Sequence record: NC_070982.1
From: Escherichia phage vB_EcoP-101114UKE3
Length of the DNA stretch: 64,000 nt
Direction: 5' to 3' (one strand)
Both the position numbers and the translations under genes were made by a program. The number at the start of each line of letters is the position of its first letter. The first letter of the stretch is position 1. The notes beneath the pieces are model-generated. The model was not told the DNA's origin. It did no database searches and saw nothing but the letters and a program-made list of their open reading frames with translations. Positions 31,360 through 58,476 of the stretch are shown one piece after another.

Positions 31360-32181
31360 TTATTCCCAAGTTTTATCTAACCATGACCAATCAAAGAGGT
31401 CACCTTCAGCTTGTCCAACGAAGAGCAATCGAGCGTTTTCTAACATCTTATCTTCTGCTTCTTCCTCGAACCTCTTATAGTATTCCATTCGTATAATATG
31501 ATAAAGAGTCCACTTATCGAATACCTTCTCAATAAGTTTGATTGCAGCCTTGCTACCAATGCCTTTACGGCGCATAACCAAGTTGCCACCCCACATCATT
31601 TCAACCTTCTCACCACAACCGGGAATATTATCTGTATTATCCCCAATCAACATTTGGTAGAAGAAATTCTGCCATGCTACTTCTTCTGATACATAATGAG
31701 GAGGTACTTCTTTCTGTCTTTCTCCACAAGCCCAACGATAATGCCATCCGGGAGTGATTAACAAATCTTTATCACGAGTACAGATAATCGTATTCTTATC
31801 TCGTCTCTGTCTTTCAGCTAGGGCATCATCTGCCTCTCTCCCAAAGACTTCTACATACTCGTAATTTTCTTTAATATAATCACTAACGTTCTGCCAGTGG
31901 TGGGGTCTTTCTCCCGGTGGGCGATTAGCTTTGTAGCCTTGCTGTTTAGCAATGTTAAATCGAAAGTTACCACCTTCACTGAAGTAAAAGATTGTTTTCT
32001 CACAACCTGACCTTGCAATGATTACATCAATTTTGTGTTGAAGTCGTTCAATCAAGAATCCATAATCAACTGGAACACGACCTGTGTCTAGAAAAGGATG
32101 CTCTTGTGTAAGAGCACCGACTTCATATCGCAGAACATCTGCATCCACAATTGCTACTTCAGGATAGATTACATCAGACAT
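31360..32181 (-). CDS. Flap endonuclease / 5'-3' exonuclease (274 aa)
   Basis: GREADD and IGDNTDNIPG motifs typical of phage FEN / RNase H-type nucleases; ATG at 32181 with GGAGAG RBS. Confidence 0.65.
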   Translation of the reverse strand: MSDVIYPEVAIVDADVLRYEVGALTQEHPFLDTGRVPVDYGFLIERLQHKIDVIIARSGCEKTIFYFSEGGNFRFNIAKQQGYKANRPPGERPHHWQNVSDYIKENYEYVEVFGREADDALAERQRRDKNTIICTRDKDLLITPGWHYRWACGERQKEVPPHYVSEEVAWQNFFYQMLIGDNTDNIPGCGEKVEMMWGGNLVMRRKGIGSKAAIKLIEKVFDKWTLYHIIRMEYYKRFEEEAEDKMLENARLLFVGQAEGDLFDWSWLDKTWE

Positions 32182-32770
32182 AGAGTTCTCTCCGTGTCCG
32201 TACAACAATCCAGTTTAAATAATCTACTGCATCTTCTACAGTAGAATTATTCGCTAGGTAGTATGTATTTCTCTGACTACCTTCAATGTAGGAACGAGAA
32301 TCTCCTTTAAAATCACAACCTTCACGAATCACCTGAATTACCTGAACATGGAAATGTTTCTCTAGTTCTTCAACTTCGGCTTTGAACCCACCATCAGAGA
32401 AGACGATAACATCATTCTGTGATGGGATACGTTGTTGAATACTGCTAACAGCAAGTTTACCCATGCAGGTCTCACCAAACATAGGCTTCAGGTAATTCTC
32501 GCTAGTTGCAATCATCAAGTCTCGAACTGACTTACCGTCCCATTCAGGACGGCTATGTTCTTTCCACTCACGATCGTTGTACAGCTCCATGAACTCATAA
32601 AGAGGTAGACCTAATGCAGCAGCAGCCACTCGATACATAGGCTCCTTAAAAGCCTTTACATGAGGCCTAAACTCGGTGTTACCAAGTGTTTTCTCTAACC
32701 AAGAATTAGCGATTGTATCTTTACCACAACCCGGTGGTCCATTCAGAATTACTACTAATGGTTTACTCAT
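32174..32770 (-). CDS. P-loop kinase, deoxynucleoside monophosphate kinase-like (198 aa)
   Basis: N-terminal P-loop GPPGCGKDT. Confidence 0.5.
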   Translation of the reverse strand: MSKPLVVILNGPPGCGKDTIANSWLEKTLGNTEFRPHVKAFKEPMYRVAAAALGLPLYEFMELYNDREWKEHSRPEWDGKSVRDLMIATSENYLKPMFGETCMGKLAVSSIQQRIPSQNDVIVFSDGGFKAEVEELEKHFHVQVIQVIREGCDFKGDSRSYIEGSQRNTYYLANNSTVEDAVDYLNWIVVRTRRELYV

Positions 32771-38128: not shown

Positions 38129-38440
38129 CTACTTCTCCACCACAAAGAGGTTAACTTCAATGAAAGTTTCGTATTGTGTTGACTCCTGCTTACGGGTGTA
38201 GTAGAAATGACGACCTTCTAATGCACCTCCGTACTGAGTGGCACATCTTTTAACCATCTCTTTTATCACATCTACAACTGATTCGCCTTTCCACGGACGT
38301 AACCCCTGAGTTGGGACTTTTGCTGTACAGGTTACTTGTGTGTAACCTACATCTTGTAGAGATATCTCAAGAATCAGCTTTGCCCAAGCATCAAAATTAA
38401 GCTTGGGGTTATATTTAACTTCAGTTTTGATATCAATCAT
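38129..38440 (-). CDS. Hypothetical protein (103 aa)
   Basis: Start overlaps the DNA polymerase stop. Confidence 0.45.
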   Translation of the reverse strand: MIDIKTEVKYNPKLNFDAWAKLILEISLQDVGYTQVTCTAKVPTQGLRPWKGESVVDVIKEMVKRCATQYGGALEGRHFYYTRKQESTQYETFIEVNLFVVEK

Positions 38441-40284
38441 TAGTGAGTATGATTCCAGTTTAATCCAATCTTACAATCTGATGCAAGAGGACATTCCATC
38501 TTGAGGTATTCCCCTGCTTTACGAACACATTCTTCAGTGAGGGTACGAAGTTTGTTAACATCATCACGATGTACAGTGAACTGTCCTTCATCATGCATGT
38601 CAATAACCTTCGCACAACGAACACCATCCCGCTCAATCCATTTATTGAGGAATAGCATTGCATACTTCATAACAATCGCCCCAGCGCTCTGTAAGAGTGT
38701 ATTTAAGGCTTTATGGACCATAACCTTTCCAGTTGCATCTCTTCTCATTGTAATACGACGTCCATCCACACCGTAGATATATCCACTTTGCGCTTTCTCT
38801 GTCATACGTTCAATAAGGATTGCAATACAAGGGTTCTCTGCTAAGAATCTTGCTCTCATGATAGCCCCTTCGTCAGAGCCACCACCTACAATACTTCCTA
38901 ACTTAGCGTCACCTGCCCCATAGTTAAAGGCATAGATAAACGTTTTAGCATTATCACGAGTAGGAAGGCCAGCAAGTTTTTGGTTATGTGAGTGAATATC
39001 TCCTTCTAAAAGAATATCTCTATACATAACAGCAGAAGCTAGACCACGTTCAGCTTCTCGTTTCTTAGCCGGGTTGTTTTCTCGCTCTGCTTCAGCGAGC
39101 ATCTCACGACATTCTTTAATAAGGTAGTGAGCTAGCATCCTCAGCTCAAGACCAGAGCCATCGTAACCTAAGAAGATTTCACGACCAGCAGGAACATAGA
39201 ACTTATAGGCACCTACGGGTTTGTCTTTCTTGCCCGGTTTTCCCACTTCGTAGATAATGTTAGTACCCTTTCGTACGTAACACCCATCAGGGATATGGTT
39301 GGTAATGATGAAAGGATGGTTATGACTATCGTCTGAGGAATAGTCAGATTGAAAAAGACTGCGGCACTCGTGACCAAACAAACCGCGAGAAGGAATATTA
39401 ACAACAATGCGATGTTTAAAACGAAATGTCGGAGTAGCGCAGCTATTAGCTTCGGCGGACAACTTACCATCTTTACGTTCCTTGTCGATAAGCCCGCTAA
39501 TCAAACCTAGCCTGTGAGCCGCTACAACGCGTCTCTTAAGCAAACTTCCTACACCCCCTAGCTCACCCCCAAGCCCCTCTTCAAGAGTCTCCTCAAGGTT
39601 TGTAGGGGCTGTGGGCCACTTGTTTGATGTAGCCAAAGCTTTTTTGATTTCATCAAAGGTTACAGGTTTCTTCCTATTCGGATTAAGACCTAAACCACTG
39701 ACGTAGGCTTTCATGTAGTTGACAGTGTGATAACGGAAATGTTTATCCAAAAATCTTCGGATATCAGCATCTATCATCTCCGCTGTCTGTTTCTCTTTAG
39801 CATTACCTCGAATCCAAGCAGAATACCATGCAGAGTATGTACCATACTTCTTCATAGCTCTACGGATTTCAAATGTATTCCAAGGTTTCTTAGAATAATT
39901 CCACTCTGGAGGTATGAAGCCCTCATCCATCAAGGCTTCTTTAATACGTGCATCTTTCGATGGGTCGAAGTCTACATACTCAACGCAAGTAAACGCCCCA
40001 CCGATATCTTCTCTTTTAAGACCAACCCTATCGCAATAGAGCTGAGGCCACTTCTGTAAAGCACCTGATTTCTTAAAAGGCTTAGCATAAGTTGAACCAT
40101 CCACCCGCATTTTAGGGAGGAGAGGAATCAGTTCTTTATCAATATTGACAATAATCTCTTTGAGAAGGTGAACAAACCACCGAGCGTTTCTTCTGTTGAA
40201 GTTGACTCCATGCTTCGCTTGTTTTGAGATTATATCAGCGACTGTCATCTCCGTTATGAAAGGTAACTTATCAGGGTTATCCAT
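38440..40284 (-). CDS. DNA polymerase, family A, polymerase domain only (614 aa)
   Basis: Motif A DGSGLELR, motif B RDNAKTFIYAFNYGAG, motif C IDMHDEGQ; ATG at 40284 with AAGGAG RBS; no 3'-5' exonuclease domain in this ORF. Confidence 0.8.
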   Translation of the reverse strand: MDNPDKLPFITEMTVADIISKQAKHGVNFNRRNARWFVHLLKEIIVNIDKELIPLLPKMRVDGSTYAKPFKKSGALQKWPQLYCDRVGLKREDIGGAFTCVEYVDFDPSKDARIKEALMDEGFIPPEWNYSKKPWNTFEIRRAMKKYGTYSAWYSAWIRGNAKEKQTAEMIDADIRRFLDKHFRYHTVNYMKAYVSGLGLNPNRKKPVTFDEIKKALATSNKWPTAPTNLEETLEEGLGGELGGVGSLLKRRVVAAHRLGLISGLIDKERKDGKLSAEANSCATPTFRFKHRIVVNIPSRGLFGHECRSLFQSDYSSDDSHNHPFIITNHIPDGCYVRKGTNIIYEVGKPGKKDKPVGAYKFYVPAGREIFLGYDGSGLELRMLAHYLIKECREMLAEAERENNPAKKREAERGLASAVMYRDILLEGDIHSHNQKLAGLPTRDNAKTFIYAFNYGAGDAKLGSIVGGGSDEGAIMRARFLAENPCIAILIERMTEKAQSGYIYGVDGRRITMRRDATGKVMVHKALNTLLQSAGAIVMKYAMLFLNKWIERDGVRCAKVIDMHDEGQFTVHRDDVNKLRTLTEECVRKAGEYLKMECPLASDCKIGLNWNHTH

Positions 40285-40300
40285 CACCCACTCCTTATAG

Positions 40301-40654
40301 TTATTGGTATATTAAGTCTGTGAATGCTTGGTTGTCTTCAACAATATCTAAAGCTTCATATGAATCAGACAATTCATCCACATAAAAGACTGCTGGAATA
40401 TCTTCTGCTCGCTGTCTACGAGATTCCCTTTGTTCATTGATATTTCTTTGAACCTGTGCAAGTTTCATACCCCACACCTGCTCATACAACTCTGGATATT
40501 TGTCACTAACCACTACATAATTTCGAGCTGGTTGGTTTCTATTAATCTTCGCTGTCAACTCAATAAACTGGCGAAACTCTTGAATAGAGAGGTTGTCATG
40601 AATATTATCCCATTTGAGAACGCAGTGACGTTCTAGGCATTGAGGTACTGGCAT
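40301..40654 (-). CDS. Hypothetical protein (117 aa)
   Basis: RBS GTGGAG. Confidence 0.45.
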   Translation of the reverse strand: MPVPQCLERHCVLKWDNIHDNLSIQEFRQFIELTAKINRNQPARNYVVVSDKYPELYEQVWGMKLAQVQRNINEQRESRRQRAEDIPAVFYVDELSDSYEALDIVEDNQAFTDLIYQ

Positions 40655-40657
40655 AAC

Positions 40658-40915
40658 TTACTCCACTGTCGGGAATGGTTTTAGGTTGTTCATGGCTGTA
40701 CGAACATCAGCACAGATTTCAGGATCACGATAAGAGAGGAATTTACCATCCTTACCACGAATCATTACATTAGTCCGTGATGTTTTATTAGGCAATAAAG
40801 AAATCCCTCCAATAAGATGGTTGGTAGGGTGTTGTCCTTGATTAACCTTGTAGTCATGAGTCTGAGCGTCACCATTAAAGAGATGATCACGAATTTGGAT
40901 TAAGCTAATCTTCAT
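40658..40915 (-). CDS. Small hypothetical protein (85 aa), tandem paralog of 40917..41168
   Basis: ATG at 40915 coupled to the upstream stop (TAATATG); shared RTNV-x-RG-x-DGKF-x-S-x-RD...NLKPFP motif. Confidence 0.45.
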   Translation of the reverse strand: MKISLIQIRDHLFNGDAQTHDYKVNQGQHPTNHLIGGISLLPNKTSRTNVMIRGKDGKFLSYRDPEICADVRTAMNNLKPFPTVE

Positions 40916-40916
40916 A

Positions 40917-41168
40917 TTATGCACCAAAGTTAGGGAAAGGTTTCAGATTTTCAATAGACTTAGCAATACGCTTAGGAACAGCCTTATCACGGAAGGAGAT
41001 GAACTTTCCATCAGGACCACGAAGGGCTACATTAGTACGAGCTGTTGTTTTGTTAAACTGAATCATCTCAACAGAGCTTGTAACATTTTCTACAGGAAAA
41101 GTATAGCTCTCAGTTGTGTTCAGAGAAGGGAGGAAATCAGTTACAGTGATGTAAGTTACTTTAGACAT
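40917..41168 (-). CDS. Small hypothetical protein (83 aa), tandem paralog of 40658..40915
   Basis: ATG at 41168 with AAGGT RBS; the ORF-track start at 41204 lies inside the terminator hairpin. Confidence 0.45.
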   Translation of the reverse strand: MSKVTYITVTDFLPSLNTTESYTFPVENVTSSVEMIQFNKTTARTNVALRGPDGKFISFRDKAVPKRIAKSIENLKPFPNFGA

Positions 41169-41198
41169 ATTTATTACCTTAGGTTCTATAAAAGAAAA

Positions 41199-41220
41199 GG
41201 CCACCCGAAATGGGTAGCCT
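41199..41220 (-). terminator. Rho-independent terminator (minus strand)
   Basis: Minus-strand RNA reads GGCUACCC-AUUUC-GGGUGGCC followed by UUUUCUUUU. Confidence 0.45.
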
Positions 41221-41224
41221 TATA

Positions 41225-41539
41225 TCAACTTGAGCTTAAAGCTCCTTTGCGACCGCCTGCTGATTTTCCAGCACGATCTCCACTTTTGCCGCCGTTCGAG
41301 CGATTTCGAGAGACTGATTCAACACGTAAGTTACTTGACGCATTAGAACCTCCCGACTTGATTGATCGTTTGTGTCCAACATCTTTACCTCGGACAGCAG
41401 CTTTTCCATCGCGCTTTTCAACGATGCGACGTGCACGGTGGCGCTGAGCATCTCCGCTCTTGCTACCAACGCCGGTCTCACCCCTTGCGATTGCAGTTCT
41501 TCGTTCTTGTGCATAATCACGTTTCGCCTTATCGGTCAT
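41225..41539 (-). CDS. Highly basic low-complexity R/K/G/S-rich protein (about 104 aa), candidate nucleic-acid binder
   Basis: Strong AAGGAG RBS, its own TAATGTATA element and terminator; local GC is visibly higher and an alternative-frame ORF 41236..41520 is also open. Confidence 0.4.
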   Translation of the reverse strand: MTDKAKRDYAQERRTAIARGETGVGSKSGDAQRHRARRIVEKRDGKAAVRGKDVGHKRSIKSGGSNASSNLRVESVSRNRSNGGKSGDRAGKSAGGRKGALSSS

Positions 41540-41574
41540 CATAACTCCTTAATATATCAGTGTACACTAAGGAG

Positions 41575-41583
41575 TATACATTA
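41575..41583 (-). promoter_or_regulatory. Candidate promoter element TAATGTATA upstream of the basic-protein gene
   Basis: Minus strand reads CATAATGTATACTCC about 35 nt upstream of the ATG; overlaps an 8-bp inverted repeat ACTCCTTA / TAAGGAGT that includes the RBS. Confidence 0.35.
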
Positions 41584-41586
41584 TGT

Positions 41587-42324
41587 TTATGATTTTTCAG
41601 ATTCCATTGCTTTAACAATAGCTTTACAGAAACCTGAACGAACAATATCATCCGATTCGCCATCTACTAGAGCGGCAAATTCAAATAACTGGTGACGGTA
41701 GATGAAATCAGTAGCCCAATCAAGACCGCTCTCACCACGCATGTCGTGCTGGTTAGTGTCCCCCATGCAGAACATCTGAGAGGTTTCACCAAGACGTGTC
41801 ATGATTGAATATGCTTCATCAGGAGTAGTGTTCTGGAACTCATCAACAATCACGATAGCATCGTTGAACGAGCGACCACGTAGATATTCCAGAGGTACGA
41901 ACTCAATATTACCATTACCTACTTGACATTCGTAGAAACCTTTACCGTAGCGCTGAGTAATAACATCAACGATTGGCATTAGGTATGGTTCAAACTTCTC
42001 ACGAAGCCCACCGGGAAGTAATCCAAGACTATTACCCATACCAACAGCAGGTCGGCTTAGGATAATCTTCTCAATCTTCCCACTCTTCAGAGCATCAATC
42101 ACTGTAGAAGTGATTACGAAGGTCTTACCACAACCAGCAGGAGCATCTGTGAATACAACCTGTTTGGTTTTAATTGCATCAAGCAGCTCACTCTGGAATT
42201 GGTTCTGAGGTACTACCGGCTTAGCAAGAACTACTTCTTCAAATTCCCGCTTTCCTTTCTTGGTGACGAGAGCTTCACGACGTAATTCTCTCCGTGATGC
42301 TTTCCGAGATTCTCTACGACTCAT
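41587..42324 (-). CDS. phoH: PhoH-like ATPase (245 aa)
   Basis: Walker A-containing FTDAPAGCGKTF and PhoH-like downstream blocks; RBS GGAGG. Confidence 0.8.
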   Translation of the reverse strand: MSRRESRKASRRELRREALVTKKGKREFEEVVLAKPVVPQNQFQSELLDAIKTKQVVFTDAPAGCGKTFVITSTVIDALKSGKIEKIILSRPAVGMGNSLGLLPGGLREKFEPYLMPIVDVITQRYGKGFYECQVGNGNIEFVPLEYLRGRSFNDAIVIVDEFQNTTPDEAYSIMTRLGETSQMFCMGDTNQHDMRGESGLDWATDFIYRHQLFEFAALVDGESDDIVRSGFCKAIVKAMESEKS

Positions 42325-42502: not shown

Positions 42503-42823
42503 TCAGATTGATTTGTCCTTATGTAAACGGTATACTTCAGTAGCCATACAAGCTATACGCTCGTCATGTGGGAGATGCATACCAGTAGAGCCGTTCCATC
42601 CTTCGAACTCTGAATCAAAGAATCCAATAGGCTCGGGATACATCTCTTGCAAGGTGGTTAAGTCATCAGCCACTTGTTGCCACTTATCGTCAGACCAGAT
42701 TGGGTCATCCAACCAATAATACAAATAGGAGTGGATAAGCATCTGTGTTCTATGTCGTTTAATCACTTCAGCAGGACTGATTTCATTTCCGTTACCAGTC
42801 CTAAATGTATTATTGTTGATCAT
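42503..42823 (-). CDS. Small protein resembling the N-terminal Ia domain of NAD-dependent DNA ligase (106 aa)
   Basis: YLYYWLDDPIWSDDKWQQVADDLTTLQEMYPE parallels the LigA pattern YLYHV-D-P-I-D-EYD-L...LE-HPEL; no KxDG adenylation motif. Confidence 0.35.
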   Translation of the reverse strand: MINNNTFRTGNGNEISPAEVIKRHRTQMLIHSYLYYWLDDPIWSDDKWQQVADDLTTLQEMYPEPIGFFDSEFEGWNGSTGMHLPHDERIACMATEVYRLHKDKSI

Positions 42824-44353: not shown

Positions 44354-44629
44354 TTAAATACCTTTCAGAGCTGTATCTAAAAACGCACGGAGGTTTGATT
44401 CAGTTTGCATACCGGACAAGCTGTAGTGAGCACCACTGTTCATGTTAGGAACCACAAAGGCTGGGATACTGCGAACACCATATTCAATGGCTCGCTCTCG
44501 ACCATTACCTTCAGAGATATTTACTTCTTCAACTTCTACGTTGTAATCAGCTACAACTTTCTTAAACACAGGAGCCATAGCTGCACACGGAGCACAGGAA
44601 TTACTATAAAACTTAATTACTTTACTCAT
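44354..44629 (-). CDS. Thioredoxin-like protein with CAPC active site (91 aa)
   Basis: FYSNSCAPCAAMAPVFKKV resembles the thioredoxin WCGPC region; ATG at 44629 with AAGGA RBS. Confidence 0.6.
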   Translation of the reverse strand: MSKVIKFYSNSCAPCAAMAPVFKKVVADYNVEVEEVNISEGNGRERAIEYGVRSIPAFVVPNMNSGAHYSLSGMQTESNLRAFLDTALKGI

Positions 44630-44819
44630 TTTATTCCTTGTTAATAAACAGATTGATATGACGTTGGGTAGCAGGAACAACAATAAAAGATTTATACTGA
44701 CCTTTTGCTAAGTCATGAGCAATCTTCTTTGTCTGACTAAGACCCATTACACAGCCACTAACAATAATAGCATGTGCTTGTAGCTCTTCAGGTAGGTTTA
44801 GTTTCACTCTTTGGGTTCC

Positions 44820-45257: not shown

Positions 45258-45824
45258 TTAGTAAGACACATCACCACTGGAGTGGGACATGTTGCTCTTG
45301 ACGAAGTAACAGAACTTGCCAAGACCTTCATTAATTTCTTGAAGCATACTCTGGTCCACTGGATAGGTGCACAAGTCTGAATCAAACTCATCCATCTTCT
45401 CAATGATACACATAAGAGTCATGCACATGTCGGAAAGCATACCGTCCATGTCAAGATCAGCGTTACCTTCTCGGAACCAAGCATGACCTAAATAATTACT
45501 AGCAGTAGCATCCACTTTAACACAATGAAAGCGCATACGCTCTGCTATTCGGTCGCCTGCCTCACGAGCATAATCTTCTAGTTCATCGAACATACCATGA
45601 ACACCTTGGAAACCAGCTCCAGAGACGTTCCAGTGGTAGTTCTTTGCTTTGATGTGTAGAAGTTCAAGGTTAGCTTGCACACCACACAAGATGTGTTCTA
45701 AGCTGTTACCGCTAATCAGTTTATTCATTCCCTCAAGACGAGAGATAGAAGAGTCAGTAGCAGAGAATGGGTTGCTAGAACCCACTCGTGTTAGTTCTGG
45801 TAAGTCGAAGACATTATTATGCAT
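45258..45824 (-). CDS. Dps-like ferritin-fold protein (188 aa)
   Basis: KNYHWNVSGAGFQGVHGMFDELEDYAREAGDRIAERM matches the Dps pattern HW-x-V-x-G-x-F...H...F-x-E...D-x-IAER. Confidence 0.65.
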   Translation of the reverse strand: MHNNVFDLPELTRVGSSNPFSATDSSISRLEGMNKLISGNSLEHILCGVQANLELLHIKAKNYHWNVSGAGFQGVHGMFDELEDYAREAGDRIAERMRFHCVKVDATASNYLGHAWFREGNADLDMDGMLSDMCMTLMCIIEKMDEFDSDLCTYPVDQSMLQEINEGLGKFCYFVKSNMSHSSGDVSY

Positions 45825-46146
45825 TAGGTGCATCCCCTTCTAAGTTAGTTGAATTAGCTACATTACGAGCAATGTTATCCATGACCTGCTGTGTAATAAC
45901 AATGCAATTCTGAGGGTCTACTGATTTAGAACGCCCCATCTCAGGGTCATAGACTTTGACTCGCTTGGCTGTTGAGCCAGTAACTTGCAACACTTTGAGA
46001 AGATAGCCTTGGTTTCCAATAGACCATGCAACAACATCACGATTCTTGATATAACGACCAAGCATGTCACGATGATAGAACTGCTGCATAACTTTAGCTT
46101 TGCTAATCTCTTCAGATGGCGGGGCCACTTTACTCAAATCTAACAT
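45817..46146 (-). CDS. Hypothetical protein (109 aa)
   Basis: ATG at 46146 with AGGAGAG RBS; a near-copy of the TAATGTATA element lies about 40 nt upstream. Confidence 0.4.
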   Translation of the reverse strand: MLDLSKVAPPSEEISKAKVMQQFYHRDMLGRYIKNRDVVAWSIGNQGYLLKVLQVTGSTAKRVKVYDPEMGRSKSVDPQNCIVITQQVMDNIARNVANSTNLEGDAPNA

Positions 46147-46840: not shown

Positions 46841-47374
46841 TTATACACCCTTAGATGCAACTACACCATTACTGCCGTTGTATCGACCCTTCACTGCATA
46901 AGAGTCATCACCAGCGTGAGAGTGTTCGAACATAACCATTTGACCAACACGCATCCCAGCACGAACTCGTAAGCTATGATTATGGGTAACGTTATGAAAT
47001 TCAAAGGTTAGTTTACTGCTGTTAAACCCTGCATCAGCCCAACCAGCATGGAGGTGGTTTAAACCACAACGAGCCATTGAGGAGCGAAGTACAAACAGGC
47101 TTGAGATGTTATCTGGAAGGTTAAACTCTTCCATTGAGTGCGCTAAGAAGAATTGCCCCGGAGTGATAACAATACCATCTTCAGGGATTTTTACTTCTTT
47201 CCACTTGAGGTTTTCTTTAGCATCAATGTCAACAATTCCGTCAGCCTGTTCTTCAACAAGGATAGTATCACCAATACGGATATCCACGCTAGCAGCGTTA
47301 ACATATTTATGCTCCGCATCTAAAAAGCCATTATCAATAACGCTGTGTAATTCTTGAGAACCTAAAAGACTCAT
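46841..47374 (-). CDS. dcd: dCTP deaminase / dUTPase-family enzyme (177 aa)
   Basis: SSMARCGL and GWADAGFNSSKLTFEF blocks typical of the dCTP deaminase family. Confidence 0.7.
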   Translation of the reverse strand: MSLLGSQELHSVIDNGFLDAEHKYVNAASVDIRIGDTILVEEQADGIVDIDAKENLKWKEVKIPEDGIVITPGQFFLAHSMEEFNLPDNISSLFVLRSSMARCGLNHLHAGWADAGFNSSKLTFEFHNVTHNHSLRVRAGMRVGQMVMFEHSHAGDDSYAVKGRYNGSNGVVASKGV

Positions 47375-48819
47375 GAGTTTCTGTTTCCTTGTACAGATGA
47401 TGCCAAATTATTAATCATGTTACGAGCTGTTTCACGAGATAGTGTAACACCTGCTAAGTTGTTATGAAGCTCACCAGATAGCTCACGAGCAGCAGCTCGA
47501 AGTTCTGTACCAAGTGTAGTATCGGAGTGAGCCAAACCATTACGACGACTATAAGGTCGAGGAGCTTCGTTAGCGTCATTAGCCAATGATGCAAAACCAA
47601 TATGAGCAGCTTCACGAGACGCTATAGTTGACACTCGATCTTCCGTAGGGGTTGGCAAATCACCAACTTCTACACGTTCTATATCACCAGCACGTAGACC
47701 CTGAACGACTGAGCTTACTGTTTCCCATGAACGACGAGAACGCTGTAAATCACCCATTGACGGAGAAGAAGCAGGTCGAACAGTTACTCCACCTGTATCA
47801 TGAGTGACATGCCATGTACGAGTATCCATTCCAGAAGAGCGTGCACTACCAAAACTGCCAGTGAAAGTGTCACGAGGTGCCATTGTAGGAGGAACTGCGA
47901 ATCTTTCCTGTTGCCAAGAATCGCGTCTGTTAGTTCCCGGAGTCCAAGGCTGCGTGATTGCTTCAGCACCTATAGTGGTTAATCCGCTAGACCATTCTGT
48001 CTGTAGGTTAACTTCCTCGTCCAGATAACTACGACCCCTTTCCTGAGGAATGTTTAATATAGTTTCCATCATCTTCAGGGTATAATGACGACGCTGATTC
48101 TGATATAAATTTACACCAGCCATAGGTCCAACTAAATCACTAATCAGGTGAACTTCTGGCTCACCGAAAGCTCCCATTGCAAGGTGCATATATTCGGTAG
48201 AACTGCTATAAACTGCAACAGTTGCTTCAGGCCACTTCTTGTGAACATACTTCATTTCACGACCAGATACCACAGGAATGTCACGAGTGTATGACATTGC
48301 AAACAAACCTTCGTTTGACACATACATGTCATCAAGAGACATGAACCCCTGACAGATCATAGGAAAGCGACGGCTTAAAGTATCCATATCCAAAGGTAGA
48401 TTAATCATCATCTGGATTTTAACTTGATCAATCTCAATTTCCAGAATCTCTTGGAAAGTGAAAAGTGCTTCAGCGTAAGTTGTCCCACTAACAGGCTGAA
48501 CTAGGCGAGATGTAGTTTGAAGCCCTTTACTCTCTGTCCAAGACAAGAAGTTGTCAAGGAACAGTGCAGCATTCATCACGTTAGCAGGGTTGTTTTCCTG
48601 ACGGGTGTTCCAACGAAACCCTCCTTGGACTAGGAAGATATCCACATCATTCGGAGTTCGGTTCTGGAAGAACGTATCACGGATAGCACCACCTGCAATA
48701 ACAGGGTAGATACCATCAGGAACTACGTTGTCTCTGATCAGATTGCGAATCAGATCAAGCCCTACGCTGAGGGCTTCTCCTTCTTGAAGGTTTAATTCAG
48801 ACAATGGAATCTTAATCAT
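47371..48819 (-). CDS. Nucleotidyltransferase-fold protein with long S/T/R/G-rich C-terminal region (about 482 aa)
   Basis: GG-x13-DVD pattern (VIAGGAIRDTFFQNRTPNDVDIF) fits Pol-beta-type NTase; ATG at 48819 sits 2 nt after the exonuclease stop. Confidence 0.5.
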   Translation of the reverse strand: MIKIPLSELNLQEGEALSVGLDLIRNLIRDNVVPDGIYPVIAGGAIRDTFFQNRTPNDVDIFLVQGGFRWNTRQENNPANVMNAALFLDNFLSWTESKGLQTTSRLVQPVSGTTYAEALFTFQEILEIEIDQVKIQMMINLPLDMDTLSRRFPMICQGFMSLDDMYVSNEGLFAMSYTRDIPVVSGREMKYVHKKWPEATVAVYSSSTEYMHLAMGAFGEPEVHLISDLVGPMAGVNLYQNQRRHYTLKMMETILNIPQERGRSYLDEEVNLQTEWSSGLTTIGAEAITQPWTPGTNRRDSWQQERFAVPPTMAPRDTFTGSFGSARSSGMDTRTWHVTHDTGGVTVRPASSPSMGDLQRSRRSWETVSSVVQGLRAGDIERVEVGDLPTPTEDRVSTIASREAAHIGFASLANDANEAPRPYSRRNGLAHSDTTLGTELRAAARELSGELHNNLAGVTLSRETARNMINNLASSVQGNRNS

Positions 48820-48821
48820 TT

Positions 48822-49370
48822 CTACATTTTCCAATTTAGAGATGGGGGATTCTTATAATCAAATCCAGCCATTTGGCAAAGACACATGTAAACCTTAACT
48901 GTCAAGTTAACGTCTTGCTCACAATACGTGAACATGTCTTCAGTGAATGCATCCCATGCTTCTTCCTGTTCACCATAATCACCCTTCAGCTCTCCCAGAA
49001 ATTCGCCCCATTGCTTGAGGCCATGACCGCGAGGGCCATGTCTAGGGTCGCCTTTGGGGTATTCTGGACTATCACCAATACGGTCAGGCTTGAGATATCT
49101 ACTCAGGCACAAAGTATCGAAGACGTTAAAGCGAAAAGGTATCACATGAGAATAAAACTTAAACAAAGCAGGAAGGTCAAAATCAATAATATTGTGACCT
49201 ATTACTACATCAGCTTCTTTCAGTTTGTGTAGTGCTTCTTCAATTTGGTGAGGGCGATACCCCCACCGCTCTCCAGATAATACATCAAATATCCAGATAC
49301 ACCAGACATTCTGAATACCATCATAGAGATTATCACCCTCGATATCAAACGCATACAGTTTCTTTACCAC
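48822..49370 (-). CDS. DnaQ-like 3'-5' exonuclease, stand-alone proofreading domain (182 aa); GTG start
   Basis: Exo I FDIE, Exo [13 protein letters not shown], Exo III YCEQD; GTG at 49370 preceded by GGAGG. Confidence 0.65.
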
Positions 49371-51154
49371 GGACGTGCCTCCCCTTCCTGTGCAAGTAAG
49401 GAAGCTGCATCCTCTCCATTGGTAACGGTAAAAGGATGCTCTTCATCAACTTCATGATCTTCTCGTTCTACAAGACGACCTGTTTCGTTAATGTATTTGG
49501 TATAGCAAACCCCTGTCTGTCCATAGTTACGCTCTTTGAGCAGTCGTATGATTGACAAGTTTTTACCTAACCCATCCGCTTGTTTGTTACGTTCAAAACC
49601 AATAATACACTGACACCAGCGCATCAATGAACGTGAACCAGTAAACTGTACTTCTTTAACCTGACCACCTTCTTCGTGAGGTGCACCACCTGCCGGAGCG
49701 TTCAAGTGAGATAATACAAAAGCAGTGAAGTCTAATTCCTTACACATACCAGCAAGCTCTGAAGCAATCTTGCTGATTTCTGTGTTTACCTCAGATGGGG
49801 TTAAGTGAGATACCAATGCAGTGATGTTATCAAGAATGATAAATTTACACTGATTCTCAACTACCCAAAAGCGAATACACTGCTTAATGTCTTCCCACTC
49901 GTTCTGCCCAAAGTTGTCATACAAGAAAAACTTATCAGCGTATCGAAGTGCTTCATCTCGTAGCTGGCTTTCTTCGTACTCAACATCTGGTCGGTGGAAT
50001 GGAATAGATGCAGATTTACCTGCAATGTTCTTAACAGACATGCCTACCTTCTCTTCCAAGAAGAAGCCACCACCATTAAAACCATGCTCAAGGCAAAGCC
50101 ATGCTACTAGTTCGTGTGCGATTAAGGTTTTACCTGAACCAACACCACCGCCGATTGCAACCATCTCTCCCCAACGAATACCAAAGGTCATGTCGTTAAG
50201 AGTTTTCCACGGATAAGGAATACCCCATTCCGCTTTCTTCAGAGCATCTTCGAGGCAATCAAAAACTGTAACAGCTCCAGCAGGAGATTCCCGCTTAGCT
50301 GAATATTTCAGATTGTTGAAAAGCTCTTGACCTCTCCCTGCAAGTAACATGTCGTTTGCATCTTTGATTTCCTTTTCTTGTCCGTTATAAGTGAACGTAC
50401 CTTTTGGAATCCTTGCAAACTTAACATGCGGGTACAGAGAACGACCCTTAGTTAAAGCAATCTCACCTGCATCATCATTGTCCATGCAGAGTACAATCTC
50501 CTCGAAACCATTAATAAAATCACGGTTTCTTGATAATACAGAAGAGATTGAACCTGCACCGAACGGAAGAGAGACGCAAGCAGGTTTGATGTTAGTTGCG
50601 TTTGTAAACGCGGTAAGTACGTGGAACCCAGACATACAAGAGAGAGGATCTTCAAAGATGAAGAGTTTCTTGTTGTATACGTCACCACGTTGTGCTTGAG
50701 CCATACCAAACAAGTCGGCTTCTTTCACATTACCTACATAATAGAACTTCTTGCTGTCTAGAAGTTTTACTTCATATCCAACAATGTTCCCATCACGTTC
50801 ACGAGGGAAGAAGTAGCTGTCAGGAGTTTGACCATCTGTTTGGCTTAAACCGATACGGCATCCATAACGTTCAGATACAGCTTTAGGAATTAAGCGACGA
50901 GTCAACTCTCCCTGAGGAAGCTCTAAGCAATCGTCTAAGACTTCTCGGAGTTCTTCAGGGGACAGCTCTTTCTTTTCATTAGGAGTGGGCGTCGTTCCTT
51001 TCTCGAAGATTTCATACGCACCACATCTGTTACATGAACCCCACTCCTCACCGGACTCTTCATTTCGGAAGAGAATCATGTGATTGCGGGTCTTATCACG
51101 ACCATGAGAGATACACTCTTTACAGCCTGTGTCTCCCAAAATGATCTTTGACAT
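49364..51154 (-). CDS. Primase-helicase (596 aa)
   Basis: N-terminal C-x2-C...C-x2-C zinc ribbon, central primase-like region, C-terminal Walker [10 protein letters not shown]; RBS AAGGAGG. Confidence 0.8.
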
Positions 51155-51189: not shown

Positions 51190-51396
51190 TTAGTAAAACG
51201 ATCGTATTTCTTCCCACACATCATCTTGCAAGTTTCTAAAACCCTGCAAGGTTTGCTTTGTTCTGTGAATAAATTCTTCAGAGTGCTTATCAGGTGTGAG
51301 CATACTGACAAACTTTTCATAGCGATTAATCTTCCACCGCATCTTCAAGTAGTCAGATTCCAGCTTTCTTAACTTCTGCCTGTCAGTTACTGTCAT
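51190..51396 (-). CDS. Small hypothetical protein (68 aa)
   Basis: ORF-track frame 51190..51492 trimmed to the ATG at 51396. Confidence 0.35.
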   Translation of the reverse strand: MTVTDRQKLRKLESDYLKMRWKINRYEKFVSMLTPDKHSEEFIHRTKQTLQGFRNLQDDVWEEIRSFY

Positions 51397-51814
51397 CCTT
51401 CTCACCTGCCAGATATGCTGTCCAGTCACCAGATTCAACCAGAACATCTTGTTCTTCGTCGATGTGATAAATCCACGCTTCCACAGTTTCACCGCTGTCC
51501 AATAATACTGGAATCAGTGTACGCTTGTAAAAGGTGTATGGGTTATCATTACCACGATGACCTTCCAGACCGTCATACGGACCTTCCAGACCAGCTTGGG
51601 TTGTTTCAAAGACTTCTACACGAACAGGCTTACCATTGCTGTCATGCTCCAAAGATACACTTGGGAAGTATGCTGTGCAATACTGATACAGGTTACAGTT
51701 GTTTACTGTCCACCCTTCACCAATAGACACACCACCTGCACGAGCATTGATAGCGTGGTTGTGTTGACCTTTACGAAGAGAACCATACGTTGCAACTAAT
51801 ACTTTATCAGACAT
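51383..51814 (-). CDS. AIG2 / gamma-glutamyl cyclotransferase-like protein (143 aa)
   Basis: N-terminal YGSL motif (VATYGSLRKG) with downstream acidic residues; RBS AAAAGG. Confidence 0.55.
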   Translation of the reverse strand: MSDKVLVATYGSLRKGQHNHAINARAGGVSIGEGWTVNNCNLYQYCTAYFPSVSLEHDSNGKPVRVEVFETTQAGLEGPYDGLEGHRGNDNPYTFYKRTLIPVLLDSGETVEAWIYHIDEEQDVLVESGDWTAYLAGEKDDSN

Positions 51815-51818
51815 TACA

Positions 51819-52016
51819 TTACCTTTTGTTTAAAATTTCTTTTGTACAAGAAGTCCCGTTACACACGAGAACTGTTTGAGTTATAGAATCGACAACTGTT
51901 ACATGGCTGCCGCATTGAGTTATGATTTGACCTCTCCCTGAATCTTTAGAGATGCATTCATCAGCGGCGATCGCTGACACACTGAATAAGGAGAGGAAAA
52001 ATAGAATCTTTTTCAT
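51819..52016 (-). CDS. Small secreted cysteine-rich protein (65 aa)
   Basis: Signal peptide MKKILFFLSLFSVSAIA followed by about 48 residues with 4 Cys. Confidence 0.45.
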   Translation of the reverse strand: MKKILFFLSLFSVSAIAADECISKDSGRGQIITQCGSHVTVVDSITQTVLVCNGTSCTKEILNKR

Positions 52017-52022
52017 GGCTGC

Positions 52023-52439
52023 TTACCAATCATGTTGGAAACCAGAATATCCAGAGAAGATGATTGATCGGATTGGCTTTTCAGGGAATCCTTCAAAACA
52101 TCCCTTAATGGCTTTCTTGGTTTCATCAGAAATTGACTCTTTTTCACCAAACCAATATTCTTCAAAAATATCAGAGAAGATATAAGTTCGGTATCTTTCC
52201 AAGTCATAAAAACCTTCCACTGCACTTGTAACAGCTCTACTAATTACACTTGAAGCTACAGGAAATAAGTCACCGTGTTCCAGAAACAAGCACCAACGAT
52301 CAAAGAGAGGAATCTCTTCATCTTTCAGAAGACTTTCTAACTCTTCCTTTGCCTCTTTCTTGTGCTTCTCAAAGAGGTTTTTGGAATACTCTACATCTAA
52401 GATACGACTTTTAAACATATCCAGTTTATTATTAACCAT
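52023..52439 (-). CDS. Hypothetical protein (138 aa)
   Basis: RBS AGAGG. Confidence 0.45.
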   Translation of the reverse strand: MVNNKLDMFKSRILDVEYSKNLFEKHKKEAKEELESLLKDEEIPLFDRWCLFLEHGDLFPVASSVISRAVTSAVEGFYDLERYRTYIFSDIFEEYWFGEKESISDETKKAIKGCFEGFPEKPIRSIIFSGYSGFQHDW

Positions 52440-52496
52440 TTTACAACCTCTAGTTAAATTCGAACTAGCCTCCTCTTTCGAAGAGGCTAAAGCAAA

Positions 52497-52682
52497 TTAT
52501 TCTACTTCGAAGTGTTTGATCACACCAGTCAGTACATCAGATTGGAATGTACCCACTAGCTCTGTACCTCGGAAAAAGTTAACACTTGTTCCAAGTGATT
52601 CAAAGCGATCTGCTTGAATGTCCAGAGATTGAATATTTCCTTCTGCTGACATTGTACGAAACATGATTGTGTATTTATTCAC
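52497..52682 (-). CDS. Small hypothetical protein (61 aa), GTG start
   Basis: GTG at 52682 with AAGGGAG RBS, overlapping the upstream stop. Confidence 0.35.
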   Translation of the reverse strand: MNKYTIMFRTMSAEGNIQSLDIQADRFESLGTSVNFFRGTELVGTFQSDVLTGVIKHFEVE

Positions 52683-52921
52683 AGACTCGTTACTCCCTTA
52701 TCTGCTTGTGCAATTGCGATGATACGCTCAGCACATTCCATTGAATACTTATCACCTCGTTTGAGGAAGGTGATGATTGCAGAGAACTGATTACCAATCA
52801 TTCTCTTATTTGTGATACCAAACTCTTCACAGAGTTGGTTGATAGCTTTACGAGAGCCTACAATCAGAGGCTCTTTTTCTTCGGTCATTCCACGGCTGAT
52901 CAAATCTTCGATAGACAACAT
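52679..52921 (-). CDS. Small hypothetical protein (80 aa)
   Basis: ORF in the operon. Confidence 0.4.
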   Translation of the reverse strand: MLSIEDLISRGMTEEKEPLIVGSRKAINQLCEEFGITNKRMIGNQFSAIITFLKRGDKYSMECAERIIAIAQADKGVTSL

Positions 52922-52947
52922 TACAAATTCCTTTTTGTTTAATTTAA

Positions 52948-54183
52948 TTACAGAGTTACTGCTACTTCGCTACCTTCAACATTGACAGACTCTAACTTGC
53001 GAGGGTTATGAATCTGGACTGGATTGACCGGAACGTTCCAACCACTGCGGTAGAAGTTACGACCATCACAGAACAAAATGACATTGGCAGACATTGCATT
53101 CGGTTGAAGGTTGTTGTGGACGTGACGGATATCTGCAATCCAGTAACCACGAGACAAAGTGTAACCAGTAGGTGCATTACGAATAGTTTGAGTATTCATC
53201 TGACCTTCTAGCTGCATTTCTTCAGGAACTACATCTACCGAATCAACCGGCTGTGCTACTTGTCCTTCCAGTGCAAAGTTTTCATCATCAGCACTTTCAA
53301 TATCATCCACTAACTCACCGTCTCCATCTTCAATCGGAGTCTGGTAAACCACTTTATACTGAGGAGTATAGAGAGGGTTCTGAGCTTTAACAAACTCAAG
53401 AATGTTATGACGGTAGGTATCCAGAGTTGTACCAGTCAGGCCCGGTGCTGTATTAACTTCCAGTACCCACGCTTCTTGACCTTTGGTGATAATATCAACT
53501 GCACCGAAATCCAGACCCATTGATTCAACAGCTTTCACTGCATTGATCAGAGAGGCGTCATTCGGAGCATCTGTGAAGGAGCTTGAGTAAACCCAGCCAG
53601 TGTGGTGATTACGAATATCTTCACGATAGTTAGGGTCTTCGCGATAACCATTGCGACGAATCTTCTTCTGAACATAGGTGATTACACCTTTGAACACATG
53701 GACACGCCACTCACGACGTGGGCCTTGAATGCCTTTAGTGTACAGTTCAGCTCGACCAAGACCATCACCCGGTTCTACAACAACAATGCCCGAACCAGAG
53801 TGACCAGTCAGCTCATGGCGCTCATACACAATATTACCAGTGTTTGACCACTCTTGAGCAGTCTCTTGAACATCTGTGTATTCCACAGTTTTAACACCTG
53901 CTTGGTCCATCACGCTGAAAGCACGACGTTTGTTCGCTGCCATATGTAAGGCTGCGGTACGGTTAAGGACGGTTGCAGAACCAAAGAATGATTCAGGATA
54001 GCGACGGTTCCCGTAGTTAACAACCACATCACCTTCACGAGAACGCCAGCGGCTATTCTCTGAAAGAAGACCCATCACGTTAGCATTGATGCGTTCATCA
54101 CGGATAGTATCACTGATAGCAGATACTAGAGCGTTAACAGAATCAGACGGGCCATACGGAAGAACACGGATACGAGTAGTCAT
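52948..54183 (-). CDS. ATP-grasp ligase (411 aa)
   Basis: Glycine-rich GHSGSGIVVV loop and C-terminal VLEVNTAPGLTG motif typical of ATP-grasp enzymes. Confidence 0.7.
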   Translation of the reverse strand: MTTRIRVLPYGPSDSVNALVSAISDTIRDERINANVMGLLSENSRWRSREGDVVVNYGNRRYPESFFGSATVLNRTAALHMAANKRRAFSVMDQAGVKTVEYTDVQETAQEWSNTGNIVYERHELTGHSGSGIVVVEPGDGLGRAELYTKGIQGPRREWRVHVFKGVITYVQKKIRRNGYREDPNYREDIRNHHTGWVYSSSFTDAPNDASLINAVKAVESMGLDFGAVDIITKGQEAWVLEVNTAPGLTGTTLDTYRHNILEFVKAQNPLYTPQYKVVYQTPIEDGDGELVDDIESADDENFALEGQVAQPVDSVDVVPEEMQLEGQMNTQTIRNAPTGYTLSRGYWIADIRHVHNNLQPNAMSANVILFCDGRNFYRSGWNVPVNPVQIHNPRKLESVNVEGSEVAVTL

Positions 54184-54185
54184 TT

Positions 54186-54416
54186 TTAGATACCTTTTAG
54201 TTTAAGAATTTCGTTACGACAGGATTGAATTTTAGCTTCGATTGCCCAATACTCAGCGAACATTTCGTCTTCTTGGGCATCGCTTGGAGAGTCGATTAAG
54301 TTAAAAGCAAACGGATACAGCTTTCGCTGCTCCGTTACCAGTTGTTGAAGTCGGAGTTGTTGATACTCCAGCATTGTCAGGTGAGGCTTAGCTCCCTTGC
54401 TTGACATGAGGCTCAA
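54186..54416 (-). CDS. Small hypothetical protein (about 76 aa), possible TTG start
   Basis: TTG at 54416 with AAGGGG RBS; the first ATG is at 54407. Confidence 0.35.
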   Translation of the reverse strand: MSLMSSKGAKPHLTMLEYQQLRLQQLVTEQRKLYPFAFNLIDSPSDAQEDEMFAEYWAIEAKIQSCRNEILKLKGI

Positions 54417-54621
54417 CTTTAATCCCCTTCATTTTAACATAGTCAGCCAACACGTTATTGATAACGGTTGGAAAAGGGATTTCTACTGGAGAGTCAACCA
54501 GCTTCCCAATACCTTCTTGCATCCACTTCTGGATTGCTCGGAGGTTATCACATCCTGTGCTTGTCATCGGAATACGGCGGGTAGTTACCACGTTATCCAA
54601 CATCAGTTTACGAACTTCCAT
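54388..54621 (-). CDS. Small hypothetical protein (77 aa)
   Basis: RBS AAGAGG. Confidence 0.4.
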   Translation of the reverse strand: MEVRKLMLDNVVTTRRIPMTSTGCDNLRAIQKWMQEGIGKLVDSPVEIPFPTVINNVLADYVKMKGIKVEPHVKQGS

Positions 54622-54632
54622 AACTATACCTC

Positions 54633-56666: not shown

Positions 56667-56743
56667 TTTCTAATCCACCTGAAGGGTAAACCCTTTCATC
56701 TAATTAACCTTTAAATGCGCCCTGTATAAGAGCGCCCGTTGTG

Positions 56744-57844: not shown

Positions 57845-58467
57845 AATGATTCCACCAACTCTACATTATATGATGACAGGTCTGAAGAAATATGCTTGAA
57901 CTTCTCCAGAAGGTTTAAAGATTGACGACCATTGTCGCCATAACCAGCTTCAAGAAGCACGTTTCCAACGTAAGCCCCTTTGTAATAAACTTTTCCATCG
58001 ACAGGATTGATATAGATGAAACGAGTAACCAACCCTTCAAACTCTGGATTAAACAGGTTATACACCAAATCACCCGGAATCGAACGTCCGAGAGAAGGTG
58101 GAGTACCACGAAGTTTATTCCCCATCAAGCCTTTAGCTCGCTGACGAACAGGGTTGATATGGGTCCAGCTCACCACGTTATTACCATGCTGAAGGTATCC
58201 TACATCTGGAGACTCCAGAATGAGGCTGTGATCAAACACTGGGATATTACTAACAATCTGACGTTCAAACTGACCTTCGGAGTTTTTAGTCCAGCGTTCC
58301 GCCTCAAACACTAAAGACATTTCAGCGTCGTGTGAGTAGTCGTCGATATCAAAGTTACCTTGCTGACGAACATCAAGCACATATAGAGGGAGGTTTTTAC
58401 CATCAGGTGATCGCTGAGCAATCCATGTTCCACAATAATAGTGTTGAAAATCTCTTAACAAGCTCAC
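57841..58467 (-). CDS. Hypothetical protein (208 aa), GTG start
   Basis: GTG at 58467 with AAGGTGA RBS; no early in-frame ATG. Confidence 0.45.
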   Translation of the reverse strand: MSLLRDFQHYYCGTWIAQRSPDGKNLPLYVLDVRQQGNFDIDDYSHDAEMSLVFEAERWTKNSEGQFERQIVSNIPVFDHSLILESPDVGYLQHGNNVVSWTHINPVRQRAKGLMGNKLRGTPPSLGRSIPGDLVYNLFNPEFEGLVTRFIYINPVDGKVYYKGAYVGNVLLEAGYGDNGRQSLNLLEKFKHISSDLSSYNVELVESL

Positions 58468-58476
58468 AATATCACC

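Follow-up and report, generated by a model that had tools for sequence, protein, structure and literature searches.

Genes A and B, two small adjacent genes that precede the DNA polymerase gene of Escherichia phage vB_EcoP-101114UKE3, are anciently diverged tandem paralogs of a phage-only protein family, PHROG 6814. The explanation that we put forward, tentatively, is that their products may serve as non-enzymatic accessory proteins of the phage DNA-replication machinery. The window analyzed here, the whole stretch of 64,000 nucleotides (nt) from sequence record NC_070982.1, comes from a phiEco32-like podophage of the C3 morphotype, subfamily Gordonclarkvirinae. Over the 4 kb around the pair, DNA comparison gives 100% identity to Escherichia phage vB_EcoP-101114BS3 and 95-99.8% identity to phages SU7 (genus Suseptimavirus), IME267, ECBP2, and Bas87. 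The same 4-kb query finds 97 phage records, which belong to the Gordonclarkvirinae wherever the taxonomy line was read.

The gene pair and its surroundings

The initial annotation had proposed that A and B are paralogs, given a motif that they share, with pairwise alignment as the check. BLASTP aligns the two proteins along their full length (35% identity and 57% positives over 83 residues, E=6e-15), a similarity far above chance. In addition, each protein independently matches the PHROG 6814 profile end to end: residues 1-81 of A align with profile positions 1-85/86 (E=2.4e-30) and residues 1-84 of B with positions 2-85/86 (E=6e-31). The motifs that had been quoted are present, TTARTNVALRGPDGKFISFRD...NLKPFP in A and KTSRTNVMIRGKDGKFLSYRD...NNLKPFP in B, and both proteins contain the core motif of the family, T-A-R-T-N-V-x2-[RK]-[GD]-x-x-G-[KR]-F-x-S, together with a C-terminal L-x-P-F-P. 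A and B are direct members of this family, as are their counterparts in phiEco32 (gp57/gp56) and SU10 (CDS54/CDS53); the alleles in the window are of the Suseptimavirus types and are ~40% identical to those of phiEco32. Both sequences are in the databases already, deposited under "hypothetical proteins" and catalogued in PHROG 6814, whose label is "unknown function." The literature searched holds no paper characterizing phiEco32 gp56/gp57 or phrog_6814, and the phage gene-essentiality screens examined do not cover these phages.

The local order of genes and signals is PhoH, the TAATGTATA motif, the gene for a 105-aa protein, a hairpin, A, B, the gene for a 117-aa protein, and the family-A polymerase gene (Table 1). 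The coordinates first reported for the pair are exact. Its placement "just upstream of the DNA polymerase" is right in that the polymerase gene is the last of the same A-B-117aa-pol string, but the 117-aa gene intervenes. Gene A has an AAGG Shine-Dalgarno sequence 8-9 nt before its ATG. At the A/B junction (TAA-T-ATG) gene B starts 1 nt past the stop codon of A, with only a weak GGTG upstream of the start; the junction between B and the 117-aa gene is TAA-GTT-ATG, and the polymerase gene has its own ribosome-binding site, AAGGAG. Because these junctions are so tightly packed, translational coupling of B to A, as noted initially, is plausible.

Table 1. Positions of the gene pair and of neighboring features in the window
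Feature	Position	Strand	Family match	Remarks
Gp36-sigma middle/late promoter element TAATGTATA	41575-41583	minus		Perfect match; between the PhoH and 105-aa genes
Gene for very basic 105-aa protein	41225-41542	minus	phrog_4590 (PHROG match E=3.4e-40)	Directly upstream of the pair
Terminator-like hairpin	41221-41197	minus		GC-rich stem followed by a U-run; between the 105-aa gene and gene A
Gene A, upstream copy, 83 aa (MSKVTY...)	41168 to 40917	minus	phrog_6814	Position of phiEco32 gp57
Conserved hairpin motif TTARTNVALRGPDGKFISFRD of gene A	40986-41048
Gene B, downstream copy, 85 aa (MKISL...)	40915 to 40658	minus	phrog_6814	Groups with phiEco32 gp56
Motif KTSRTNVMIRGKDGKFLSYRD of gene B	40724-40786
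117-aa gene	40654 to 40301	minus	phrog_11427, labeled "unknown function" (PHROG match E=1.5e-50)
Family-A DNA polymerase gene, 615 aa	40287 to 38440	minus	phrog_17	Pfam DNA_pol_A on residues 363-612 only
3'-5' exonuclease subunit gene	48822-49370			Encoded apart from the polymerase

The pair had also been called early genes. However, A and B lie in a block homologous to SU10 CDS25-68 and to the middle (replication and nucleotide-metabolism) genes of phiEco32, and it is by this homology to the phiEco32 and SU10 clusters that they are assigned to the middle class. By the same homology their location falls outside the early host-takeover class, which is characterized by a place in the early cluster and by sigma-70 early promoters. 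The nearest promoter-like element upstream of the pair found by pattern search is TAATGTATA, which matches the gp36-sigma promoter consensus taken from PMC8948821; in SU10, a promoter lies at the corresponding site, between CDS56 and CDS57. Since motifs of the TAATGTATA type are not enriched across the window (24 matches versus 18 expected), the argument for a promoter rests on its position and on the exactness of the match.

Between the 105-aa gene and gene A, a terminator scan identifies a hairpin of 10 base pairs, 6 of them GC, with an RNA folding energy of -20.5 kcal/mol (z=-3.0), and the record of phage SU7 annotates a terminator at the same place. An Rfam scan of positions 39800-42200 returned nothing at the gathering score. 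The pair begins 29 nt past this hairpin, and the A, B, 117-aa, and polymerase genes are presumably transcribed by reading through it. Read-through of such an attenuating terminator, together with coupled translation, would result in the production of A and B along with the polymerase.

The polymerase itself is without exonuclease domains, and the phiEco32 record describes its polymerase in the same way ("lacks 5'-3' and 3'-5' exonuclease domains"). Elsewhere the window encodes the primase/helicase (49364-51154), a thioredoxin (44354-44683), and a DNA-binding protein of phrog_3636 (45258-45833). In the alignment, the 117-aa protein has a conserved domain at its N terminus and, past a variable linker, an invariant tail at its C terminus, EDNQAFTDLIYQ, a layout that we take to resemble the docking tails of known replisome proteins. 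The protein is 46-50% identical to the other Gordonclarkvirinae counterparts compared, in phages whose polymerases are 86-88% identical, and 33% identical to the counterpart on metagenome contig L006; its AlphaFold2 model (pLDDT 40) is unusable. The 105-aa protein, which has a degenerate HNH-like motif, is 88-92% identical to the other Gordonclarkvirinae counterparts compared. By tblastn it is present in 248 phage records, usually beside polymerase genes.

Distribution, predicted fold, and divergence of the family

Queried with A or B, tblastn detects the family in 97 phage records, all from Escherichia or Shigella phages, with the same number and the same organism and host breakdown as the records that contain the polymerase region. 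These records hold 175 matching places, and at least 78 of them have two separate matches. Wherever gene order was read within the Gordonclarkvirinae, the pair sits between the 105-aa protein and the polymerase; phages EP335, Bas89, and Bas92-94 carry only one copy, which is of the gp57 type. More remote cultured members are found in E. coli phage PJNS034, Pantoea phage TacPo2, and the Aeromonas Lahexavirus phages. In addition, the Grimontviridae phages Salmonella SE131 and Cronobacter A24 have truncated, motif-bearing relatives at the syntenic site, between the 105-aa homolog and PolA.

Members of PHROG 6814 have about 77-107 residues. Of 5.8 billion proteins searched with a profile, 121 were hits, and those listed are 62-103 aa long and have no Pfam domain. 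A second, exhaustive profile search, against 1.84 billion representative proteins, yielded 39 clusters, of which two large repeat proteins, an SH3b-repeat protein and a kinesin-like protein, are chance matches on a short GxxxSYRD motif; the other matches are proteins of 55-107 aa only. A search of the genomes of 185,579 bacterial and archaeal species found no relatives and thus no hint that prophages or cellular genomes carry the family. So far, the family has been seen in phage genomes and phage-like metagenome contigs alone, and the cultured carriers are all lytic. Its distribution is narrow, and its origin predates the Gordonclarkvirinae.

An AlphaFold2 model of A, built from an alignment of 41 sequences, has a pLDDT of 91.2 and a pTM of 0.81, scores that point to a folded domain rather than a disordered peptide. 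The predicted topology is beta-beta-alpha-beta-(short beta bridge)-alpha. In the model the C-terminal LKPFP packs on the domain, and since residues 71-80 are modeled at pLDDT 91, this sequence is not a candidate for a disordered docking peptide of the clamp-binding or SSB-tail type. The alignment contains eight invariant columns (T42, R44, T45, V47, G54, S58, F78, and P79), and the mean frequency of the commonest residue is 0.67 at residues 41-80 versus 0.39 at residues 1-40. The second hairpin is nearly invariant (T-A-R-T-N-V-x-x-R-G-x-D-G-K-F-I-S-Y-R), a motif of ~20 residues that recurs across phages of several gammaproteobacterial genera. No His, Asp, Glu, or Cys is invariant in the 41 aligned members, which, together with the conservation within residues 41-80, makes an enzyme unlikely and favors a binding surface. 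Both proteins are basic (A has a pI of 9.7 and a net charge of +4; B, 9.3 and +3). Across the family the pI ranges from 5.2 to 10.2; thus net charge is not conserved, which weakens a general argument for DNA binding.

Searches for known relatives covered both sequence and structure. Pfam gave nothing significant for A or B at E<=10 or for the 41 family members at E<=1, NCBIfam and PADLOC gave no match, and neither single-protein nor profile searches found a relative among PDB sequences; the best PDB sequence hit, SpoIID (E=0.02), is a chance motif match. The best structural neighbors are non-significant; Dmd and p56, an inhibitor of uracil-DNA glycosylase (UDG), both of them small phage inhibitors, are among these. 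Pfam and structure searches revealed no known fold for binding nucleic acids, whether helix-turn-helix, ribbon-helix-helix, KH, or another. Consequently, the homology and structure searches proposed at the outset found members of PHROG 6814, all in phages, but no characterized relative by sequence or by fold, and the predicted fold appears to match nothing solved.

Several specific candidates can be set aside. An HNH or beta-beta-alpha-Me nuclease is contradicted by the lack of invariant catalytic His or metal-ligand residues among the 41 members and of a Pfam HNH match, and an OB-fold SSB by the model (three strands, a short beta bridge, and two helices) and by the lack of an SSB match in Pfam, PHROGs, or PDB. 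The V-x-h-R-D-x-x-G-[KR]-F-h-S motif, as we take it, recalls NUMOD1/AP2-like modules, but the likeness is superficial (a beta-hairpin with a Gly-Lys/Arg-Phe turn, then Ser and a helix), and for the homing-endonuclease modules IENR1/NUMOD1 and for AP2-like domains there was no Pfam NUMOD/AP2 match (E<=10 for A and B, E<=1 for the 41 members) and no structural match. An internal beta-beta-alpha repeat is not indicated by hhalign of the N-terminal against the C-terminal half (probability 0.8%). Finally, A and B are basic rather than acidic and are not similar to a solved member of the DNA-mimic inhibitors (Ocr, ArdA, Ugi, and p56), and fold similarity to the Dmd-type antitoxins of T4/RB69 was not found either.

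The pair and the 117-aa gene together form a fast-diverging island between conserved flanks. Between the window and phiEco32, A is 42%, B 40%, and the 117-aa protein 49% identical, versus 86% for the polymerase, 90% for the 105-aa protein, and 89% for PhoH; in general, A and B are ~40% identical between genera with polymerases that are 86-88% identical. Even phiEco32 and Bas91, with flanks that are 98-100% identical, have upstream copies that are only 67% identical, and the authors of the SU10 study list CDS53 and CDS54, the homologs of the pair, as outliers. A and B are nevertheless under purifying selection, which is weaker than that on the polymerase or PhoH: dN/dS is 0.07-0.29 for the family genes among relatives versus 0.00-0.08 for the polymerase or PhoH. 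Such values indicate that A and B are real, constrained proteins. Synonymous divergence of A and B is raised too, which points to an exchange of old alleles rather than to positive selection in place.

In a neighbor-joining tree, which is only indicative given the shortness of the sequences, B groups with the Kuravirus downstream copies, the copies of the single-copy phages group with the gp57 type, and A stands apart. The tandem pair of contig L017 consists of copies that are closer to each other (55 bits) than to their nearest relative, on contig L010. It thus looks like a separate duplication in a distant lineage, which would fit selection for two differentiated copies.

A possible accessory role in phage DNA replication

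The main argument for a role linked to replication is the company that the family keeps when genomes are rearranged. When family members and replisome genes were mapped onto all of the loci fetched, four distinct gene orders were seen. In order I, the 105-aa gene is followed by one or two family members, a gene of the 117-aa type, and PolA; this is the order of the window, the Gordonclarkvirinae, and contigs L006, L008, and L029/L030. In order II (PJNS034, TacPo2, and contig L018), a family member lies between the primase/helicase and 3'-5' exonuclease genes. One or two members lie upstream of the primase/helicase gene in order III, either adjacent to it (L010), separated by one homing-endonuclease gene (L019), or separated by two genes (Aeromonas phage LAh_9); contig L017 has the upstream genes of this order, and no primase/helicase gene is present on the contig. 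Order IV has a member upstream of PolA, either adjacent (L016) or three small genes away (L012). Thus, the family shifts its place among genomes yet stays near a gene for a polymerase, a primase/helicase, or a 3'-5' exonuclease. A further point for a replication role is that all 97 of the 97 records with this polymerase region contain the family, within the middle block.

A link to replication drawn in this way would be guilt by association: in phages, proximity within a replication module is a weak argument, since such modules also harbor small takeover genes, for example genes 5.5-5.9 of T7. In addition, the fast divergence and allele exchange of A and B are unusual for a core replisome subunit. 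The Bruynoghevirus (PaP3-like) phages lack a member of PHROG 6814 even though their polymerase is split in the same way and they possess the exonuclease subunit and a homolog of the 105-aa protein; a split family-A polymerase therefore does not require the family, which would be accessory there, not obligatory. No hypervariable patch that co-varies with the family alleles is seen in the polymerase, whose conservation is uniform.

If A and B are indeed replisome accessory proteins, each would be a single compact alpha/beta domain in which the near-invariant hairpin and the C-terminal L-x-P-F-P form a positively charged binding face. The conserved partner of this face could be fork DNA or one of three replisome enzymes that are encoded separately, namely the family-A polymerase without exonuclease domains, the 3'-5' exonuclease subunit, and the primase/helicase. 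Lineage-specific contacts would be made through the N-terminal half, which is poorly conserved. The two copies might then represent either a heteromer derived from a homomer or two specialized roles.

Small accessory proteins of this general kind exist: theta, of E. coli Pol III, and its phage P1 homolog, Hot, are small, all-alpha replisome proteins. A and B may be likened to them in size (~80 aa), in being non-catalytic, and in working, if they do, with a polymerase whose proofreading exonuclease is a separate polypeptide. The analogy would be one of role only, since there is no similarity in sequence or structure and the A model is beta-beta-alpha-beta-(beta)-alpha. Perhaps, then, A and B constitute a previously unrecognized subunit class of the split family-A polymerase replisome in C3-morphotype podophages, an idea that we hold with less than even confidence.

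Host-directed inhibition and other alternatives

The initial annotation had pointed to host-interaction or anti-defence factors, a claim that is only weakly supported in light of the middle-cluster location, the presence of the family throughout the subfamily, its linkage to replisome genes, and the basic pI of 9.3-9.7. A role in host takeover or anti-defence is less likely than one in replication. On this view, the target of the conserved hairpin would be a conserved host protein or a component of a defence system, and the variable N-terminal halves and the duplicated copies would be the product of an arms race. Such a race could account for an island that diverges far faster than its flanks (40-49% versus 86-90% identity), for the outlier status of the SU10 homologs, for raised synonymous divergence suggestive of allele swapping between lineages, and for a copy number of one or two with recurrent tandem duplication. 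The structural neighbors named above, Dmd and p56, although non-significant, are themselves small inhibitors from phages, and the T7 proteins gp5.5, gp5.7, and gp5.9, T4 Dmd, and phi29 p56 are likewise small, encoded near a polymerase gene, fast-evolving, and without homologs outside phages. Furthermore, the Gordonclarkvirinae are strongly resistant to restriction-modification and to other tested defence systems, with no known cause (PMC11990801). However, A and B are of the middle class, downstream of a perfect gp36-type motif, rather than early. Every record of the subfamily has the family, which is found beside replisome genes in phages of E. coli, Pantoea, Aeromonas, Salmonella, and Cronobacter. 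In addition, dN/dS is well under 1, with no positive selection at the level of whole genes; the proteins of the window, being basic, are not DNA mimics; and PADLOC has no match for them.

A more specific version of this inhibitor reading, which we consider improbable, is that A and B, possibly together with the 117-aa protein, are an inhibitor module of new fold behind part of the unusually broad resistance of the Gordonclarkvirinae to restriction-modification and other defence systems. Here a conserved component, of the host or of a defence system, would be the docking site of the invariant hairpin, while fast-diverging, recombining N-terminal halves and the presence of two copies would track variable targets.

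Podophages of the Gordonclarkvirinae type are common, have a broad host range, resist most tested defence systems, and are candidates for phage therapy. The family is thus of interest as a candidate for either a new accessory factor of the "split" family-A polymerase replisome or a new host-directed inhibitor. These two options can be separated experimentally because the BASEL phages Bas86-88, which are close relatives, plate on engineered E. coli K-12. Bas87 does so on K-12 in which the O16 antigen is restored, and its versions of A and B are ~98-99% identical to those of the window, differing by one or two substitutions each. If A and B prove dispensable, the finding would be only a well-described family of unassigned function.

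A third reading, to which we give little credence, is that A and B are small nucleic-acid-binding regulators of the replication operon, which would act on read-through of the terminator or on translation of the polymerase message. The pair begins just past a strong terminator-like hairpin that precedes the polymerase gene, the hairpin motif of the proteins is rich in Arg, Lys, Thr, Asn, and Ser, and the basic pI, small size, tight gene packing, and copy number of one or two are in keeping with such a function. Against it, no known nucleic-acid-binding fold was detected in the searches described above, and the net charge varies across the family. Moreover, a terminator-specific role is unlikely to be general, given that elsewhere the family lies beside primase/helicase or exonuclease genes. 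Finally, the notion that A and B are chance open reading frames or decaying duplicates without function, which their small size and lack of annotation might suggest, is refuted by full-length conservation in 97 phage genomes and in metagenomes, by the dN/dS values, and by a confident predicted fold with a near-invariant motif of 20 residues.

Genes next to the tandem pair

The 105-aa product of phrog_4590, encoded upstream of the paralogs, contains a degenerate HNH-like stretch, DVGHKRSIKSGGSNASSNLRVESVSRNRSNG, which lacks the usual cysteines; some GenBank records label the protein "HNH endonuclease". Its conservation within the subfamily (88-92%) is far above that of its neighbours, and the gene is preceded by a perfect gp36-type promoter motif and followed by a strong terminator. 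By tblastn, the protein is matched in 248 phage records, including those of Bruynoghevirus, Grimontviridae and Lahexavirus, and in these records split polymerase genes usually adjoin it. CDS56 of phage SU10, which we take to be the homolog given its gene position and mass (10.8 kDa), has been detected in the SU10 proteome.

On the other side of the pair, the 117-aa protein of phrog_11427 consists of a conserved N-terminal domain, a variable linker that is either basic or proline-rich, and a C-terminal tail. This tail, EDNQAFTDLIYQ, is strictly invariant across alleles that are otherwise ~50% identical, and it looks like a docking peptide. An AlphaFold2 model of the protein was unusable (pLDDT 40). 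In metagenome contig L006 the N-terminal domain sits inside a 269-aa protein, and in contig L008 a DprA-like protein occupies the place of the 117-aa protein.

Features of the window and of related loci
Feature	Coordinates	Strand	Remark
5'-3' exonuclease	31360-32208	-	separate gene
Family-A polymerase	38440-40287	-	without exonuclease domains
117-aa protein	40301-40654	-	phrog_11427
105-aa protein	41225-41542	-	phrog_4590; very basic, low-complexity
106-aa protein	42503-42823	-	PF22745, E=8e-34
3'-5' exonuclease subunit, 182 aa	48822-49370	-	separate gene
Primase/helicase	49364-51154	-	
Ligase/transferase-type genes	51383-59328	-	conserved cluster
Second tandem family pair, 90 + 95 aa	L017:4585-5137		metagenome contig SRR31677053_114967
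Salmonella phage SE131 gp083, ~90 aa	L031:5620-5889		between 105-aa protein and polymerase
Cronobacter phage A24 protein, ~90 aa	L032:4986-5261		syntenic site, 105-aa protein/polymerase
Aeromonas phage LAh_9 gp077, 76 aa	L022:7003-7233		between primase/helicase and exonuclease subunit

Other members of the family and their annotation

Within the second tandem pair, whose genes overlap by 8 nt, the two copies resemble one another more closely than they do members from other lineages, and this pair apparently arose independently. The SE131 and A24 proteins are probably truncated, divergent relatives: the family motif closes both (...RTNVSVRDTKTGRFVKW and ...RTNIAIRDPKTGRFLPW, respectively), neither has the C-terminal helix or the PFP segment, and a second GRFV-like turn lies close to the N-terminus. 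LAh_9 gp077 bears a weak resemblance to the motif (E ~0.04-0.4) and may represent a second, highly diverged family copy at the type-II position.

In several deposited genomes, among them the GenBank relatives ES17, CHD5UKE1, 172-1, EcoN5 and XT73, orthologs of the upstream copy (40917-41168) are called "autotransporter adhesin". Nothing in the sequence or structure supports an adhesin; thus, the label looks like an artefact of annotation pipelines.

Replisome pieces and enzyme-like genes

The replisome of the window is encoded as separate pieces, with the gene for the 3'-5' exonuclease subunit overlapping the end of the primase/helicase gene. The polymerase gene is intact in the window and is interrupted by homing-endonuclease insertions in SU7, ECBP2, KBNP1711 and contig L006.

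The 106-aa protein is a lone Ia domain, the NAD+-binding N-terminal part of NAD-dependent DNA ligase. In related phages it is annotated as "DNA ligase", an identity for which the protein is far too short; it may modulate host LigA.

The ligase/transferase-type cluster encodes a gamma-glutamyl cyclotransferase, an S6-glutaminyl-transferase-like ATP-grasp protein, a GlmS-like amidotransferase, an amidoligase and a COOH-NH2 ligase, and might conceivably serve in peptide or nucleotide modification. PaP3-like Pseudomonas phages, as well as the distant contigs L010, L017 and L019, carry parts of it alongside the replication genes. Near the cluster, at 46841-48834, lie genes for a dCTP deaminase and for a nucleotidyltransferase of 487 aa.
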